A DNA stretch of 32,000 nt, from positions 1,740,001 through 1,772,000 of the forward strand of contig CP126532.1 of the NCBI GenBank assembly GCA_030167145.1, written 5' to 3'. Source of the stretch: Ktedonobacterales bacterium (GTDB lineage Bacteria > Chloroflexota > Ktedonobacteria > Ktedonobacterales > JADMIN01). Shown here one piece after another: positions 9,934 through 17,160 of the stretch. The notes under the pieces are model-generated. The model saw nothing but the letters and a program-made list of their open reading frames with translations. It ran no database searches and had not been told where the DNA came from. Every line of letters begins with the position of its first letter. Position 1 is the stretch's first letter. Position numbers and translations under genes: made by a program.

Positions 9934-10002
9934 GCTGTACGTACCGCAAGCGCACCGTGTTAGTATGGTCGCGTAACCGTGCGTGTGGAGGGAGTGGGCG
10001 CC

Positions 10003-10608
10003 ATGGGTGGCATGAGCGCATCGCGTATCTTCATCAGCCATAGCCATGCCGACAACAACTTCGCCCGCAAACTTGCCGATGAGCTACGTGCGGCTGGTGC
10101 GGATGTCTGGTACGACGAGCATAATCTCTCGTCGGGCGACTTCCTAAACAACATCTCGCGAGAACTGCGTGACCGCTCCGTGGTCGTCGTGGTGCTCTCC
10201 AAATCTGCGCTCGCCTCCCAGTGGGTGAATACGGACTTGGATTCCGCGCTTGCGCTTCACTTGCGCGAACCTGGGCGCATCATCGTGCCCATCGTCGCGG
10301 AGCCGCTCGCGCCCGAAACCCTTCCGCCGCTGCTGGCTTCATTCAAGCGCATCGCCGCGCCGGGCGACCAGCCCTACTCACCCGAAGAAGCCGCGCGCCA
10401 TCTGCTCGATACATTGGGGCTGAAGCCGCTGGCCAGCACAGCCAGTACCATAGCGGAGGAAGCGGAGGACGCCGAAATGGACGAGGAAGACCATAGCTGG
10501 CAGGTCGCTATGGCCAGCACCGCTACCCTGATGCTCGACCACCTGCTCGACCAAGCCAAAGAGCAGATTGAACACGGCGACGTCCGAGATCTGGCAGAGC
10601 TTCTGTGA
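10003..10608 (+). CDS. TIR-domain protein with acidic linker and short C-terminal helical tail
   Basis: RIFISHSHADNNFARKLADELRAAGADVWYDEHNLSSGDFLNNISRELRDRSVVVVVLSKSALASQWVNTDLDSA is a TIR_2-type (PF13676-like) domain. The ATG at 10003 is preceded by GGAGGGAG with an 8-nt spacer. The tail is EEAEDAEMDEEDHSWQ...LLDQAKEQIEHGDVRDLAELL. The stop overlaps the next start. Confidence 0.8.
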   Translation: MGGMSASRIFISHSHADNNFARKLADELRAAGADVWYDEHNLSSGDFLNNISRELRDRSVVVVVLSKSALASQWVNTDLDSALALHLREPGRIIVPIVAEPLAPETLPPLLASFKRIAAPGDQPYSPEEAARHLLDTLGLKPLASTASTIAEEAEDAEMDEEDHSWQVAMASTATLMLDHLLDQAKEQIEHGDVRDLAELL

Positions 10609-10877
10609 TTTCAAAGACCACACCAGCGTTTCGCAGATTGTTCAACGCGCTGCCGCCCGACATCCAGGCGCAAGCGCGCGACACTTTTGTGCTGTTCACG
10701 TCGAACCCCAATCATCCCAGCCTGCATTACCAGCGGATCAAGCGGCACAAGGACTGGCTGCGCTCGGTTCGCATTGGCCTCAACTACCGTGCCCTCGCCA
10801 TTGAGCGGGGCAATATTCTGTACTGGATTTGGATCGGCCCCAGAGCCGATTTCGACTATTTCATCAAACACTATTAG
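10605..10877 (+). CDS. RelE/ParE-superfamily toxin-like protein (90 aa)
   Basis: The pattern F-x-x-L...PPDIQAQARDTFVLFTSNPNHPSLHYQRIK...WLRSVRIGLNYRALAIERGNILYWIWIGPRADFDYF matches the RelE/ParE-type family (HPSL, SVRI..YRA, W.WIG...Y). The GTG start overlaps the upstream TGA (GTGA). Confidence 0.7.
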   Translation: MISKTTPAFRRLFNALPPDIQAQARDTFVLFTSNPNHPSLHYQRIKRHKDWLRSVRIGLNYRALAIERGNILYWIWIGPRADFDYFIKHY

Positions 10878-10958
10878 GTGACCTCAATTTTCCTCAGCGC
10901 ACGCCCGCACACACCAGCGTGGTATGGTATGCTGCATGCAGCAGCCTTCGTGGCTCGC

Positions 10959-11002
10959 CCGGACGAGATGCGCGCCGTACCCGGATGGCAAAGACGACGC
11001 GC
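10959..11002 (+). ncRNA. candidate guanidine-III (ykkC-III) riboswitch aptamer
   Basis: CCGGACGAGAUGCGCGCCGUACCCGGAUGGCAAAGACGACGCGC aligns almost position for position with the Thermobifida fusca guanidine-III 41-mer as I recall it (CCGGACGAGGUGCGCCGUACCCGGUCAGGACAAGACGGCGC). P1 is CCGG(10959-62):CCGG(10981-84). The pseudoknot pairs GCGCGCCG(10970-77) with CGACGCGC(10995-11002), with one C-A mismatch. It lies 45 nt upstream of the ATG of a small membrane protein. Possible extended -10 boxes TGGTATGGT/TGGTATGCT are at 10920-10933. Confidence 0.65.
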
Positions 11003-11047
11003 GACCCGGTGATCGTCCTGGCGAACAGACCACGGAGGCATATTGCT

Positions 11048-11314
11048 ATGCAAGGGTTTACGCAAGAGTTCTTGCAGATTTTCGGCGCGATCCTCATCCT
11101 TGGCGCGTTCATCCTCGCGCAGTTTCGCATCCTCAACCAGCACTCGTATCTTTATCTGCTGCTGAATATTATCGGCTCCGGCATCCTCGCCGTGCTCGCC
11201 GCCATCACCCAACAGTGGGGCTTTCTGCTGCTCGAAGGCGGCTGGGCGCTCGTCGCGCTGTGGAGCGTCGTCGCCCGCCTCACTGGTCGCACCCCCGCCC
11301 CCTCGCACGGCTAA
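11048..11314 (+). CDS. small 3-TM membrane protein (88 aa; resembles the CBU_0592-type small membrane protein family, function unknown)
   Basis: The ATG at 11048 has GGAGG 10 nt upstream. The product is MQGFTQEFLQIFGAILILGAFILAQF...YLYLLLNIIGSGILAVLAAI...WGFLLLEGGWALVALWSVV. It has three hydrophobic helices and a membrane-embedded Glu in LLLEGGW. It lacks the SMR signature and four-helix length. Confidence 0.7.
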   Translation: MQGFTQEFLQIFGAILILGAFILAQFRILNQHSYLYLLLNIIGSGILAVLAAITQQWGFLLLEGGWALVALWSVVARLTGRTPAPSHG

Positions 11315-11394: not shown

Positions 11395-12150
11395 CTAACG
11401 TTGCTCCGCCGGGGGATGAGGCACGGGCAGATCCTCCGGCGCGCCCGGATACTGCGGCATGCCCGCGGCCGGACCAAGCGCCTCAGCGGGCGCCGTCAGC
11501 CGCGTTGCCTTGCGCTCCAGCGCGCGGCAAATCAGGTCCGCGCAGCTTTCCAGATCCAGCACCGCCGTATTCAGCACCAGATCGTACAGGTGCGCATCAT
11601 CTGGCTGGCAGCGAAACATATTTTGCATATATTGCCGCCGGTCCTGGTCTTTCAGTCGCACCCGCCGCTCCGCCGCCACATGGTCCAGCCCCTCGCGTTG
11701 CATCACATAGGCAATGCGCTGGGCGAACGGCGTGACGACGCGCACATGCAGCGCATCGCGCCGCTCCCGCAAAATCACCTGCCCCGCGCGCCCGACGATC
11801 ACCACCCGCCCCGCCTCCGCCGCCCCCGTCACCACCTCGCGCAGCGCCGTCGCATAGGCATAGGGATCCAGCGGCAGCGGGAGCGTCGGCACCGCCAGCG
11901 CGGGCGGCTCGATGCCGCGCATGCTATGCAAAAAGCGCACGACAAAGCTCTCGTCGCGCTCATCACGCGCCGCCGCATCGGACTCGCTAATGCCAAGTTG
12001 CTCTGCCACCCGCGCCACCACCTCGTGGTCAATCAGTTGCCAGCCGAGCCGCTGCGCCACCCCCGCCGCCACCTCGCCGCCTCCGCTGCCATACTCGCGC
12101 GACATCGTGACGGCGCGCATGCCGCCCGTGTGATACTGCTGATCACTCAT
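11395..12150 (-). CDS. cytidylate kinase-like family protein
   Basis: The N-terminal P-loop-like MSREYGSGGGEVAAGVAQRLGWQLIDHEVV and the overall layout are typical of the cytidylate-kinase-like (Cytidylate_kin2) family. The ATG at 12150 is preceded by GGGGAGG. Confidence 0.7.
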   Translation of the reverse strand: MSDQQYHTGGMRAVTMSREYGSGGGEVAAGVAQRLGWQLIDHEVVARVAEQLGISESDAAARDERDESFVVRFLHSMRGIEPPALAVPTLPLPLDPYAYATALREVVTGAAEAGRVVIVGRAGQVILRERRDALHVRVVTPFAQRIAYVMQREGLDHVAAERRVRLKDQDRRQYMQNMFRCQPDDAHLYDLVLNTAVLDLESCADLICRALERKATRLTAPAEALGPAAGMPQYPGAPEDLPVPHPPAEQR

Positions 12151-12218
12151 GGTGGGCCTCCCCTTCTCGGTCGCCCCAGCTACATGATTACAAAAGTGTC
12201 CGCACTTCAAGCTGGCCG

Positions 12219-12605
12219 TCAGAACGGCAGATAGATAAATTGATCGTGCCACTCCCTGTGCGCACTGCACGACCAAACGAACAACAGCGCATCAATCGCG
12301 GACCCAATTGGCAGCCGTTGCGCCACCGACATCACCCCTGGACTATGCTCCCCCGCAGGCAGATGCATGAGCAGGTCGTCAAGATATGTGGGTATTGTAC
12401 GACGATCATGGGTGAGCAAAATACGGTCCAGTGCTTTTGCGGCAACGAGAAGCTCTGGATCAGGAGTGGCAAGTAATCCCAACTGCTGGGCGGTCACAAT
12501 ATCTATCGCGGGCTGACGACGGCGCAGGCCAGCAACAATGTGCAGGTTAAAGTTGGCATCGGTGAGAAAGCGTGGTGGCCCATCACCCGCTTCTGCTCCG
12601 GTCAT
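12219..12605 (-). CDS. DUF5615-family PIN-like putative toxin
   Basis: FLTDANFNLHIVAGLRRRQPAIDIVTAQQLGLLATPDPELLVAAKALDRILLTHDRR is characteristic of DUF5615 (Mut7-C/PIN-like) proteins. The ATG overlaps the stop of the upstream DUF433 gene (ATGA). Confidence 0.7.
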   Translation of the reverse strand: MTGAEAGDGPPRFLTDANFNLHIVAGLRRRQPAIDIVTAQQLGLLATPDPELLVAAKALDRILLTHDRRTIPTYLDDLLMHLPAGEHSPGVMSVAQRLPIGSAIDALLFVWSCSAHREWHDQFIYLPF

Positions 12606-12940
12606 GAGGCGGCGCTCGGCTGATGCTCAGCCTGGTATCGCGCGATACGCTCGCGCATCATCGCGAAAAACTCTGGCCGCGCGGACTCGGCCTCCGCCCG
12701 CTGTTGTGCGGCTTGGGCATCGCCCTGGCGGAAGAATGCCTCCATCTCGCTCTGGTGCTCTAGATAGTGCAGGATGGTCCCGTATATCTCCGCCAGGGAG
12801 AGATGTGGGAATCCATTGCGTATCTCTTCCGGTGTGTATCCCTGCTGCCACGCCGCGACGACGCTATAGACCTCGACGCGCCCGCCGCCGACATACCAGT
12901 TGCCATCACGATATTGCACGTATTTCTCGGCTTCCGACAC
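12602..12940 (-). CDS. DUF433-domain putative antitoxin
   Basis: GGRVEVYSVVAAWQQGYTPEEIRNGFPHLSLAEIYGTILHYLEHQSEM is a typical DUF433 HTH-like domain. The GTG start is preceded by AGGAGG with an 8-nt spacer. It has a 4-nt overlap with the DUF5615 gene. Confidence 0.7.
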   Translation of the reverse strand: MSEAEKYVQYRDGNWYVGGGRVEVYSVVAAWQQGYTPEEIRNGFPHLSLAEIYGTILHYLEHQSEMEAFFRQGDAQAAQQRAEAESARPEFFAMMRERIARYQAEHQPSAAS

Positions 12941-14695: not shown

Positions 14696-15706
14696 ATGGC
14701 GATTGAATATCAGGTGTTGGGCAGGGCGAGCGGCGACAACGCGCTCTTTGCGCGCGTCTCCACTGGGCAGACAACGCACCGGCTGCTCTTCGACTGCGGC
14801 GCGGGCTGCCTGAATATGCTGGCGATTGGCGATCTGCTGGCGGTGGATCACCTCTGCTTCTCGCACCTGCATATGGACCACATCGGCGGCTTCGACACCT
14901 TCATACGCGCCAACTATAACCGGACCAGCAAGCCGGTGCGGATCTGGGGTCCGCCGGAGACGGCGCGCATCCTGCATCATCGCCTGCAAGGATTCCTCTG
15001 GAATCTCTACGAGGACGACCCCGGCACGTGGTATGTGCATGACGTCTTCCCCGACCACATCACCGCACACTGCTTCGAGGCGCACGAAGCCTTCGCCACC
15101 GCGCACGACGCCGCTGAGCGCCCCAATACCGGCGCAGTGATCGAGACGCCCGCATACACGATTGAGGCGCTGACACTGGACCACCACACGCCGTCACTGG
15201 CGTACATCCTGCGCGAGCGGCCGCACGTGAACGTCGCCACGGAGCGACTCGCGGAGCTGGGCCTCGCGCCCGGCCCATGGCTGAAGCAGGTGAAGGAGCC
15301 GCAGCCAGACGAAGCGCCCGAAATCGAGATCGGCGGGGCGCGCTATGCGCTGGCGGCGCTGCGCGAGGCGCTGCTGATCGAGTCGCCCGGCGGCTCGCTG
15401 GCGTATCTCACCGACTTCCTGCTGGACGATGCGGCGGTGGCGCGGCTGGTTCCGGCGCTGCGCGGCTGCGACACGATGATCTGCGAAAGCCAGTACCGGA
15501 CGGCGGAAGCGGCGCTAGCCCAACGGCATCACCATCTGACGGCGATCCAGGCGGCGGAGCTGGCCCGCCGCGCGGAGGTCGGCGAACTCATCCTGTTCCA
15601 CCTCTCGGATCGCTACCGCCCATCCGAATGGCTGGCGCTGCTGGGCGAGGCGCGCGCAATCTTCGCCAATACGCGCTTTCCAGCGCACTGGCAGCTAGAA
15701 GACTGA
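14696..15706 (+). CDS. MBL-fold metallo-hydrolase (ribonuclease Z / BN-like)
   Basis: Metal-binding motif FSHLHMDHIGGFD and N-terminal LLFDCGAGCLNML, as in RNase Z-like proteins. AAGGGAAG lies upstream of the ATG. Confidence 0.8.
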   Translation: MAIEYQVLGRASGDNALFARVSTGQTTHRLLFDCGAGCLNMLAIGDLLAVDHLCFSHLHMDHIGGFDTFIRANYNRTSKPVRIWGPPETARILHHRLQGFLWNLYEDDPGTWYVHDVFPDHITAHCFEAHEAFATAHDAAERPNTGAVIETPAYTIEALTLDHHTPSLAYILRERPHVNVATERLAELGLAPGPWLKQVKEPQPDEAPEIEIGGARYALAALREALLIESPGGSLAYLTDFLLDDAAVARLVPALRGCDTMICESQYRTAEAALAQRHHHLTAIQAAELARRAEVGELILFHLSDRYRPSEWLALLGEARAIFANTRFPAHWQLED

Positions 15707-15739
15707 GGCGGCGTTGGGTTCGCCCGCGGGGTGTCGTAT

Positions 15740-15832
15740 TCAGGAACCACCAGCACGTACTACGGCCATCAGACTCAGCACGGTCGCATAGAAGTCGTCG
15801 AGGTCGAAGGGCTTGGGCAGAACCGCGCGCAC
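15740..15832 (-). pseudogene. 3' fragment of a receiver-domain-like gene split by the IS element
   Basis: Reading the minus strand across the IS insertion site after removing one TSD copy restores ...LPVLVASTNPDLAERAAQAHPGLVR|AVLPKPFDLDDFYATVLSLMAVVRAGGS*. The KPF motif and its context resemble the beta4-alpha5 part of CheY-like receivers. Confidence 0.45.
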
Positions 15833-17160
15833 TGTATAGACCGGGGACATGGTTTACACACGTTCGGAGACATGGTTTACATCCAAGCAGTGCTATTCCG
15901 CGAGTCAGGAACACTGTTTGGAGGTTGCCCATGCCGTGGCAGGAGTCATCAGCCATGTCCCTTCGTTTGGCCTTTGTGGCGCAGGCGTCGCAGCCTGACG
16001 TCAACCTGAGCGCGCTGTGCGCCCAGTTCGGGATCAGTCGTCCCACGGGCTACAAGTGGGTGGCCCGCGCTCAGCAGGCGGGGAGCGCGGGACTGGCTGA
16101 GCGGTCGCGCCGCCCGACGACCAGTCCCACCCGCACCGCCGCCGCCCTGGAGCAGCGCGTGCTGGCGTTGCGCGCCCAGCATCCCGCCTGGGGCGGACGG
16201 AAACTGCGGGCGCGGTTGCAGGTGCTGGCGCCCGACCAGCCCGTCCCCGCCGCCAGCACGATCACCGCGATCTTGCAGCGGCACGGCTTGCTGGCCCCAG
16301 CGGACCGCGCCCCGCACCGCCGTCCGCCGCCCCAGCGCTTTACCTATGCCGCTCCCAATGAACTGTGGCAAATGGATTTTCAGGGGCATCTGCCCTTGAC
16401 GGCCCACCCCGGCGGCGGCCAGCGGTGTCATCCCTTGACGGTGCTCGACGACCATTCGCGCTTTGCCGTGGGCGTGTTGGCCTGCGCCAATGAGCAGCAC
16501 GCGACCGTGCAAGCCGCCTTGACCACGCTCTTTCGCACCTATGGCCTGCCCCGCCGTATCCTGTGTGACCACGGCGCGCCCTGGGGGAGTGCGGGCGGAC
16601 CCACGCCCTGGACCCGCCTGAGTGTCTGGCTGGTGCGCCTGGGCGTCACGGTGCGGCATGGCCGTCCCCGTCATCCCCAAACCCAGGGCAAGGACGAGCG
16701 CTTCCACCGCACCCTGCGCGCCGAAGCCCTCGCCCAGCCGCTGCACGACCTGACACACGCCCAAGCCGTCTTCGACACCTGGCGTCAGGTCTATAACACG
16801 GAGCGGCCCCATGAAGCACTGGGTCTCACCGTGCCGGCCCGCCACTATACGCCCAGTCCGCGCCCCTTCCCCGAGACGTTGCCGCCCGTAGAGTACGCCG
16901 CCTCCGCGACCGTGCGCAAAGTCCAGCAGGAGGGCTGGATCAGTTGGCAGGGGCAGGCCTACCATGTCGGCGGCGCTTTTGTCGGCCAGCCCATCGCCTT
17001 GGCCCCCACCGATGTGGATGGGATGCTGGCCGTCTACTTTGCCGACCACTGGATCGCCTCCCTGGACACCCGTTCGCACGGCGTGTATCCTGTTTCTAAA
17101 CAGCGCTCTGTTGTCAACTATGTCCCCGAACACCTGTAAAGGATGTCTCCGGTCTATACA
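15833..17160 (+). mobile_element. IS481-family insertion sequence (1328 bp), apparently intact
   Basis: Terminal inverted repeats are TGTATAGACCGGGGACAT (15833-) and ATGTCTCCGGTCTATACA (-17160), matching at 17 of 18 positions, with TGT...ACA termini. It is flanked by the 5-bp direct repeat CGCAC (15828-32 and 17161-65). There is a single transposase ORF. The subterminal direct repeat GACATGGTTTACA occurs twice (15846-58 and 15869-81). Confidence 0.85.
15931..17139 (+). CDS. IS481-family DDE transposase (integrase core domain)
   Basis: N-terminal HTH LCAQFGISRPTGYKWVAR. DDE core: NELWQMDF..., VLDDHSRF, ILCDHGAPW, HPQTQGKDERFHRTLRAE, YNTERPHEALG. The ATG at 15931 is preceded by GGAGG with a 6-nt spacer. 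The longer 620-aa ORF overlaps the MBL gene and is rejected. Confidence 0.9.
   Translation: MPWQESSAMSLRLAFVAQASQPDVNLSALCAQFGISRPTGYKWVARAQQAGSAGLAERSRRPTTSPTRTAAALEQRVLALRAQHPAWGGRKLRARLQVLAPDQPVPAASTITAILQRHGLLAPADRAPHRRPPPQRFTYAAPNELWQMDFQGHLPLTAHPGGGQRCHPLTVLDDHSRFAVGVLACANEQHATVQAALTTLFRTYGLPRRILCDHGAPWGSAGGPTPWTRLSVWLVRLGVTVRHGRPRHPQTQGKDERFHRTLRAEALAQPLHDLTHAQAVFDTWRQVYNTERPHEALGLTVPARHYTPSPRPFPETLPPVEYAASATVRKVQQEGWISWQGQAYHVGGAFVGQPIALAPTDVDGMLAVYFADHWIASLDTRSHGVYPVSKQRSVVNYVPEHL

Follow-up and report, generated by a model that had tools for sequence, protein, structure and literature searches.

We analysed a stretch of 32,000 nucleotides (nt) from a Ktedonobacterales bacterium (Chloroflexota; GenBank assembly GCA_030167145.1, contig CP126532.1, positions 1,740,001 to 1,772,000 of the forward strand), hereafter the window, in which a guanidine-III riboswitch precedes a single gene coding for an 88-amino-acid (aa) membrane protein of the CBU_0592 family. 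On sequence grounds the identity of 10938–11003 as a guanidine-III riboswitch is solid, and the linkage between riboswitch and gene family was found to be both recurrent, among genomic homologues of the protein, and reciprocal, among metagenome contigs selected by the aptamer. The features of the locus, in window coordinates, are as follows; sequences used for comparison are identified by L numbers.

10925–10933 (+): candidate extended −10 element, TGgTATGCT, with a predicted transcript start near 10940 (sequence; conserved in the closest relative found, L081)
10938–11003 (+): guanidine-III riboswitch aptamer (42.7 bits with the RF01763 model, whose gathering score is 36)
10943–10955 (+): AGCC / UUCGU / GGCU, the 5' hairpin in the Rfam model (Rfam alignment and minimum free energy (MFE) fold)
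10959–10967 (+): CCGGACGAG, the 5' pseudoknot strand (10959–10962) and the conserved ACGAG pocket strand (orthologous leaders)
10970–10977 (+): 5' strand of the GC-rich helix, GCGCGCCG (pairs with 10995–11002; compensatory changes in relatives)
10981–10984 (+): 3' pseudoknot strand CCGG, inside the conserved CGUACCCGG (10976–10984) (comparative pairing)
10995–11002 (+): 3' strand of the GC-rich helix, CGACGCGC, with the conserved AAAGA linker 5' of the strand (Rfam and leader alignments)
11013–11024 (+): predicted anti-aptamer segment (MFE fold; UCGUCC with GGACGA at 10961–10966, GGCGA with UCGCC at 10955–10959)
11030–11039 (+): CCACGGAGGC, containing the Shine-Dalgarno (SD) sequence GGAGG (11034–11038) and paired with 10944–10953 in the predicted OFF state (sequence and folds)
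11048–11314 (+): gene for the 88-aa CBU_0592-family membrane protein, stop codon (11312–11314) included (NF047864, PF26604)

To identify structured RNAs, the Rfam 15 covariance models were run over the whole window (cmscan), and a single match was obtained, Guanidine-III (RF01763) at 10938–11003 (+), with a score of 42.7 bits (gathering score 36 bits), E = 7.5e-6 and full-length coverage of the model (positions 1–67). An earlier note on this DNA, made by eye from the sequence, had likened the element to guanidine-III; its quotation of 10959–11002 was exact and the covariance model agreed with the assignment. The conserved core of the class is intact (ACGAG, including its C-G dimer and the As on either side, and the G that precedes UACCC, within CCGGACGAG and CGUACCCGG). 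Two nucleotides of this core, the C of the ACGAG strand (C6) and G17 (G10977 in the window), are ligand-pocket positions (PMC7736828). The sequence can be read as an H-type pseudoknot in which CCGG at 10959–10962 pairs with CCGG at 10981–10984 and GCGCGCCG at 10970–10977 pairs with CGACGCGC at 10995–11002, with one C·A mismatch (C10975/A10997) in the latter, GC-rich helix. This structure, which the note had also drawn, was examined by aligning the window core with 16 orthologous leaders (17 in total), with slid 3' partners as the control: over the whole structure 86.8% of the cells were paired, compared with 26–38% in the slid controls, and the pseudoknot helix 10959–10962:10981–10984 was 100% paired in the 16 distinct leaders. 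Apart from a single C-to-U change, CCGGACGAG was unchanged in 17 of 17 leaders, and the core of CCGGACGAG and CGUACCCGG was invariant across them. Double changes were present at three pairs, variation among these close relatives being limited, and one compensatory change placed a U-A pair in L001 (Ktedonospora) where the window has C·A. As a predicted structure, the pseudoknot is supported by the comparison with orthologous leaders. In L081, a contig from Logan that codes for a protein with 94% identity, the aptamer was base-for-base the same and above the Rfam gathering score.

The downstream gene is monocistronic, the next gene (cytidylate-kinase-like, 11395–12276, −) being convergent. Its product matched the NCBIfam model NF047864, "CBU_0592 family membrane protein", with 33.9 bits (cutoff 25; E = 2.1e-8; profile positions 5–71 of 72), which gives a name to what the note had called an uncharacterised family of small membrane proteins. 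In a search of 5.8 billion proteins, the Pfam family PF26604 was assigned to 330 homologues, including all 120 of those listed, two of which are named CBU_0592 family by NCBI/UniRef, and the gene called on L081 is likewise PF26604. An exhaustive profile search gave 2,011 clusters at 50% identity (E ≤ 1e-3), nearly all of them stand-alone proteins of 80–110 residues, from soil Actinomycetota, Chloroflexota, Acidobacteriota and others; among named organisms, Ktedonobacteria had the closest relatives of the 88-aa protein. The family was mentioned in no searchable paper. In line with the three-helix protein with LLLEGGW (residues 60–66) expected from the open reading frame (ORF), an AlphaFold2 model from a 121-sequence alignment contained helices at 2–25, 34–53 and 57–78 (mean predicted local distance difference test (pLDDT) score 84.8). 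Among the 121 sequences Q25, Y36, N40, G43, Q56-W57-G58-F59-L60-L61 and E63 were invariant, and W66, S33, Q10 and G13 nearly so; E63, in helix 3, is the sole acidic residue within the membrane helices. Each helix has one conserved face of polar and small residues (helix 1: Q10, G13/A14, L18, Q25; helix 2: S33, Y36, N40, G43/S44, A48, A51; helix 3: W57, E63, W66/A67, S70), as would fit a pathway built from several subunits of an oligomer. The mean number of Lys and Arg residues over the alignment was 4.0 on loop 1 plus the C-terminus and 0.6 on the N-terminus plus loop 2, a bias that by the positive-inside rule suggests a fixed N-out/C-in topology and so predicts parallel subunits, unlike those of small multidrug resistance (SMR) proteins. 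A profile search of PDB sequences with the family gave no match at E ≤ 10, and a Pfam scan of the protein and 26 relatives at E ≤ 10 returned scattered sub-threshold matches to CRCB, DUF4231, 7TMR-DISM and, once, NMN_transporter, which may be noise or leads.

To determine how often relatives of the gene follow a guanidine-III element, one genome per GTDB species was scanned, giving 558 loci that encode relatives, of which the best 80, with flanks of 700 nt, were examined. Guanidine-III was found directly upstream in 15 of these 80 at or above the gathering score (37.9–63.8 bits) and just below the threshold in two more (32.0 and 32.7 bits), and a regular expression for the aptamer core agreed with the Rfam result on the same loci. 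Rfam gave no riboswitch of any other class at these loci. The carriers included three Ktedonobacteria, seven Kitasatospora, one Microbispora, a metagenome-assembled genome of Mycobacteriales and several other Actinomycetota; in a neighbour-joining protein tree they were spread across several clades, in between members without a riboswitch. A copy 41% identical to the 88-aa protein, encoded on the linear plasmid SNP1 of Streptomyces nigrescens, had the aptamer upstream at 45 bits, and homologues on Rhodococcus plasmids had no riboswitch and uninformative neighbours.

Two further observations were made on these loci. The sub-threshold aptamer variants upstream of homologues in L078 (609–677, 32.7 bits) and L041 (607–672, 32.0 bits) carry changes at otherwise invariant positions (L078: ACGCG for ACGAG, CGCACCCGG for CGUACCCGG, and GACUACGC; L041: CUGGACGAG) and could be decaying switches or variants of altered specificity. 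In a riboswitch-free actinomycete clade (L008, L016, L022, L024 and L058, positions 3–700) the family gene directly follows a gene for a conserved multi-pass membrane protein with the motif ...PWVDAFSVWRGPT..., with which it may form an operon.

For the converse comparison, metagenome contigs were selected by the aptamer core alone (CCGGACGAG...CGTACCCGG...AGACG), giving at least 120 contigs from a soil-heavy sample. Among the 120 matches listed, the first downstream gene belonged to the CBU_0592 family in 23 (profile E-values of 1e-11 to 1e-41) and to the SMR family in about 75, and approximately seven contigs were too short to judge; in this sample about one guanidine-III element in five thus controls a CBU_0592-family gene. 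In none of these matches did an SMR and a CBU_0592 gene share one aptamer. All 20 CBU_0592-linked aptamers that were rechecked passed the Rfam gathering score, and the long contigs contained no downstream operon partners, CBU_0592 genes standing alone as SMR genes do. The earlier note had made its functional proposal depend on a link between homologues and guanidine riboswitches, and such a link was present at 15–17 of the 80 genomic loci as well as in the 23 of 120 metagenome matches. Other first genes among the matches listed coded for proteins with an MBL fold (about five), EamA proteins (three: L098, L121, L189), arginase-family proteins of 387–391 aa (two: L091, L128) and a PF06695 (Sm_multidrug_ex) protein (one: L109). 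The MBL-fold protein (PF00753, approximately 290 aa) recurred right behind the aptamer in L108, L117, L123, L141 and L175, and this class may likewise belong to a so far unexplored side of the guanidine regulon.

The C·A mismatch of the GC-rich helix, present in the window at C10975/A10997, is a normal trait of the class: among the metagenome matches listed it occurred in 16 of 23 CBU_0592-linked and 19 of 75 SMR-linked aptamers, and A-C mismatches were already remarked upon in the supplement of the 2010 paper that described ykkC-III. Its enrichment before CBU_0592 relative to SMR genes (L082–L201) could be a matter of lineage, or the mismatch may tune ligand sensitivity.

Upstream of the aptamer the note had seen possible −10 boxes. 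A better candidate is TGgTATGCT (10925–10933): similarity between L081 and the window starts abruptly at about 10916, at this element, and the two are unrelated further upstream. Since a strict sigma-70 −35/−10 scan found no full promoter, the element is a lead only. Downstream, a terminator scan found no intrinsic terminator-like site, and the SD sequence (11034–11038) and the ATG (11048) lie 31 and 45 nt, respectively, after the aptamer; the 45-nt spacing and good SD sequence given in the note stand, and its start codon moves from 11049 to 11048–11050. In most family leaders the distance from aptamer to start is 10–25 nt, compared with 45 nt in the window. The absence of a terminator and the position of the SD sequence fit translational control, the guanidine-III class being described as translational and ON (PMC12186494). 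The MFE fold of 10925–11065 (−60.1 kcal/mol, z = −2.5) is one long interrupted helix that pairs 10944–10953 with 11030–11039, including the SD sequence, and 10955–10959 with 11020–11024, and in which GGACGA at 10961–10966, covering pocket and pseudoknot strand nucleotides, is sequestered by the downstream UCGUCC at 11013–11018. The segment GCCUUCGUGG at 10944–10953, the 5' half and loop of the 5' hairpin, is complementary to the SD region, and in the window the duplex of the 5' hairpin region with the SD region was predicted at −22.4 kcal/mol compared with −12.3 kcal/mol for shuffled sequences (z = −4). The pseudoknot and the long helix are mutually exclusive at 10959–10966, as would be expected of an ON switch.

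From these features the following sequence of events can be proposed. At low guanidine, 11013–11024 and 11030–11039 would pair with the aptamer 5' strand (CCGGACGA) and the 5' hairpin, and the resulting long irregular helix would bury the SD sequence and block the pseudoknot. Guanidinium binding would lock the H-type pseudoknot, displace the anti-aptamer segment and weaken the sequestering helix, so that translation of the 88-aa protein would rise; mRNA stability would probably rise as well, as reported for the guanidine-III class. Where the spacer is long, as in the window, SD release may be helped by kinetic folding, by a 5' hairpin stabilised through coaxial stacking or by shielding from RNase E. 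The protein itself is most likely a parallel oligomer of three-helix, N-out/C-in subunits in the inner membrane, in which Glu63, together with Trp66, Asn40, Ser33, Tyr36 and Gln56-Trp57, most likely exchanges protons for guanidinium, and its task would be that of the SMR exporter Gdx, to which its architecture is unrelated. Export is suggested by the arrangement itself, in which a predicted ON switch responding to a toxic cation controls a lone 88-aa membrane protein where Gdx would usually stand. With a membrane potential that is negative inside, a passive channel for cations would fill the cell with them, and the invariant buried carboxylate would suit an antiport coupled to protons like that of Gdx, which exchanges two protons for one guanidinium (PMC12186494). 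We consider it probable that the locus is a functional guanidine-III riboswitch, with guanidine-induced translational ON control, in the leader of a unit whose only gene codes for a new guanidinium/H+ exporter of distinct structure. What we infer in this is the response to the ligand and its ON polarity, the way in which the SD sequence is released, the oligomeric state and the transport activity. For the family as a whole, we infer that CBU_0592 proteins are likely a new kind of guanidinium exporter. The fuller proposal seems to us about equally apt to prove right or wrong, namely that CBU_0592/PF26604 (about 2,000 clusters at 50% identity) is an unrecognised, structurally distinct class of guanidinium exporters with three helices, a fixed topology, probably a parallel oligomeric state, an invariant Glu as the proton/guanidinium site and a convergent LLE-x-WA cation site on a non-SMR scaffold, and that it is the second commonest guanidine-III effector after SMR/Gdx.

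Several results weigh against this interpretation. In ViennaRNA calculations on the window, locking the aptamer left SD accessibility unchanged (0.31 unpaired with and without the lock), as the 10 bp between 10944–10953 and 11030–11039 stay paired, which makes a simple SD-release picture incomplete for the window; the simple model in which a locked aptamer means a free SD sequence, not reproduced here, holds in several short-spacer relatives (e.g. L021, L052 and L071). A general anti-SD role of the 5' hairpin was not supported, the hairpin:SD duplex having a mean z of −0.4 over 36 leaders (−4.0 in the window, −2.1 in L003 and only −0.96 in the closest relative L081), and the anti-aptamer segment 11013–11024 is only partly conserved in L081. 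On the side of the protein, about 80% of the close family members have no riboswitch, their upstream neighbours being unrelated to guanidine. Of the four guanidine classes that the note had named for homologues, only guanidine-III was found, and classes I, II and IV were never upstream (best 80 of 558 loci; distant members, including the Coxiella namesake, lay outside the scan). Finally, Foldseek searches of the PDB with two models (pLDDT 68 and 85) gave no significant fold match to any transporter.

The unchanged SD accessibility bears on the possibility that control is exerted mainly through mRNA stability, with the locked pseudoknot blocking 5'-end-dependent scanning by RNase E. Formation of the guanidine-III pseudoknot shields transcripts from such scanning (review PMC12186494), and the thermodynamic model of the window leaves the SD sequence unfreed when the aptamer is locked; the SD and pocket strands, on the other hand, are complementary to other leader segments well beyond chance (z = −4), as is characteristic of expression platforms that act on translation. 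We regard stability as the main route as possible, if rather unlikely, and it would be compatible with the translational exporter reading.

It may also be that the riboswitch is real and guanidine-responsive and the small protein is no exporter, acting instead on another cation or a guanidine derivative, as an accessory or regulatory subunit of another transporter, or in protecting the membrane under chaotropic stress. Such a role would suit the majority of close relatives, which lack any riboswitch and lie in varied contexts (next to a multi-transmembrane protein, a SnoaL-like protein or Lrp/AsnC regulators) and the lack of a significant structural or sequence match to characterised transporters, and, as guanidine-III also precedes enzymes (MBL-fold, arginase-family), not every gene that it regulates codes for an exporter. 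It fits less well with the position of the CBU_0592 gene, which is exactly that of the SMR exporters, single and directly after the aptamer and, among the matches listed, never together with an SMR gene behind one aptamer, with the invariant membrane-embedded Glu and adjacent Trp, which echo the substrate/proton site motif of SMR proteins, or with a length of 83–88 aa in three helices, which leaves no room for an enzymatic domain. We therefore hold a non-exporter function to be unlikely and prefer guanidinium export.

The note had also taken the protein to be a non-SMR protein, and profile searches support this: PF00893 had no match at E ≤ 10 in the 88-aa protein or in 26 relatives, and the same model matched control SMR ORFs behind other guanidine-III elements of the metagenome set at 92–98 bits. 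An hhalign comparison with a 41-sequence SMR profile gave a probability of 3.6% over eight aligned residues only. Judged from its sequence, the product of the downstream gene does not belong to the SMR family. The traits of that family (four helices, about 105 aa, the essential Glu in helix 1 and a weak Lys/Arg bias) are all absent from the 88-aa protein, which has three helices and its Glu in helix 3; single-gene SMRs such as EmrE are dual-topology proteins, and Gdx/SugE form an antiparallel dual-topology dimer, whereas the strong Lys/Arg bias of the 88-aa protein points to a fixed topology and suggests parallel assembly. What the two share is small size, a single gene behind a guanidine riboswitch, an invariant membrane Glu with a Trp and, presumably, proton-coupled export. 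The eight residues aligned by hhalign are part of a local likeness in which LLEGxWAL (residues 61–68, nt 11228–11251) resembles lEavWA of SMR helix 1, around the sole membrane-embedded Glu of each family; this LLE-x-WA likeness could be a convergent guanidinium/proton site rather than a sign of homology. A diverged or truncated Gdx-like SMR missed by profile methods, for which this match to the segment with the essential Glu is the argument, is very improbable in view of the searches above, the helix number and topology, and the absence of any SMR structure among the Foldseek matches. Equally improbable is that the Rfam match arose by chance or marks a decayed element, with no regulatory role, since a score just 6.7 bits over the threshold and the existence of degenerate copies with changed conserved positions upstream of the homologues in L078 and L041 are set against E = 7.5e-6 for the window, a core with every conserved nucleotide intact, an aptamer identical in L081 despite diverged flanks and the same element in the same position at more than 35 independent loci.

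With guanidinium export as the preferred reading, the locus can be compared with known systems. It shares with guanidine-III (ykkC-III) elements before SMR genes (emrE/sugE/gdx), for example in Actinobacteria, the RF01763 model, the invariant core (CCGGACGAG, CGUACCCGG, AAGACG), the H-type pseudoknot, a location just upstream of the SD sequence of a small single membrane-protein gene and the expected ON response to guanidinium. It differs from them in that the regulated gene is a three-helix CBU_0592 gene and that the window has an additional anti-aptamer/anti-SD arrangement using the 5' hairpin; the class has moreover been described mainly from Actinobacteria, and the host of the window is a Ktedonobacteria-like member of the Chloroflexota. 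The fluoride riboswitch with CrcB/Fluc is a parallel in that a riboswitch for a toxic small ion stands before a very small orphan membrane protein whose substrate is suggested by the context (PMC12623156), although RNA class, ligand and protein family are all different, and weak Pfam CRCB matches in 4 of 27 family members (best E = 0.024) were sub-threshold and treated as noise. SemiSWEET, SWEET, PQ-loop and PnuC proteins resemble the 88-aa protein in being built from a three-helix membrane unit of about 85 aa with a topology that would allow parallel oligomers. Chains of SemiSWEET, SWEET and cystinosin recurred among the best Foldseek matches (TM-score of about 0.5, E > 1.9), where soluble three-helix bundles scored equally, and one of 27 family members matched PF04973 (NMN_transporter) at E = 0.006. 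PnuC and MATE have been proposed as guanidine-related transporters and candidate exporters in the guanidine-IV paper (PMC7736828), and PnuC-family genes are reported behind guanidine-IV riboswitches. No match was significant, all Foldseek E-values being above 1, and the likeness is a lead only.

The remainder of the window, with a GC content of 59–67%, looks chromosomal (RpoD, DnaG, an ABC exporter, DUF711, an MFS transporter and an aminotransferase), and no SMR gene or guanidine-degradation gene was found within the 32 kb. Directly upstream of the riboswitch lie a TIR-domain gene (9979–10608, +; PF13676, 83 bits, with a weaker ThsB_TIR match) and a ParE-like toxin ORF (10605–10877, +; PF24732) whose start overlaps the stop of the former; the pair may be a defence or toxin module, and in L081 this position is taken by two ORFs about as long, one of 147 aa that runs off the end of the contig and one of 92 aa. 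Downstream, a DUF5615/PIN-like gene (12219–12605, −) and a DUF433 gene (12602–12940, −) overlap in a toxin-antitoxin-like arrangement, and an IS481-type transposase gene (15277–17139, +; rve, HTH_32, LZ_Tnp_IS481) is found about 4 kb away from the locus.

As an RNA, the element adds one more ordinary member to a class already known; the novelty appears to lie in the regulon. The paper that discovered guanidine-III lists emrE and speB as its genes, and among the gene classes described for the family (emrE/sugE SMR, speB-like) the downstream gene of the window fits neither the SMR nor the arginase family; as the class of the downstream gene is a property of the regulon and not of the RNA, class membership of the RNA is not weakened. 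No report of a link between CBU_0592 and guanidine-III was found in the searchable literature, although a prior mention in the validation paper of Sherlock & Breaker 2017 is possible. Earlier surveys relied on conserved-domain annotation, and PF26604 is probably recent, being absent from a Pfam-A copy whose newest models are of 2025, which would explain the omission. Riboswitch context has repeatedly revealed the substrates of orphan membrane proteins, as with fluoride and CrcB/Fluc or guanidine-I and SugE/Gdx, and here a widespread family of orphan membrane proteins, about 85 aa long, is singled out by a sensor that is known and well understood. If the family does export guanidinium, the annotation of approximately a fifth of guanidine-III regulons would change, an apparent gap in guanidine detoxification would be filled in genomes without a riboswitch-linked SMR gene, and the CBU_0592 family would provide a second minimal architecture for guanidinium export, useful for comparing mechanisms with Gdx and EmrE.

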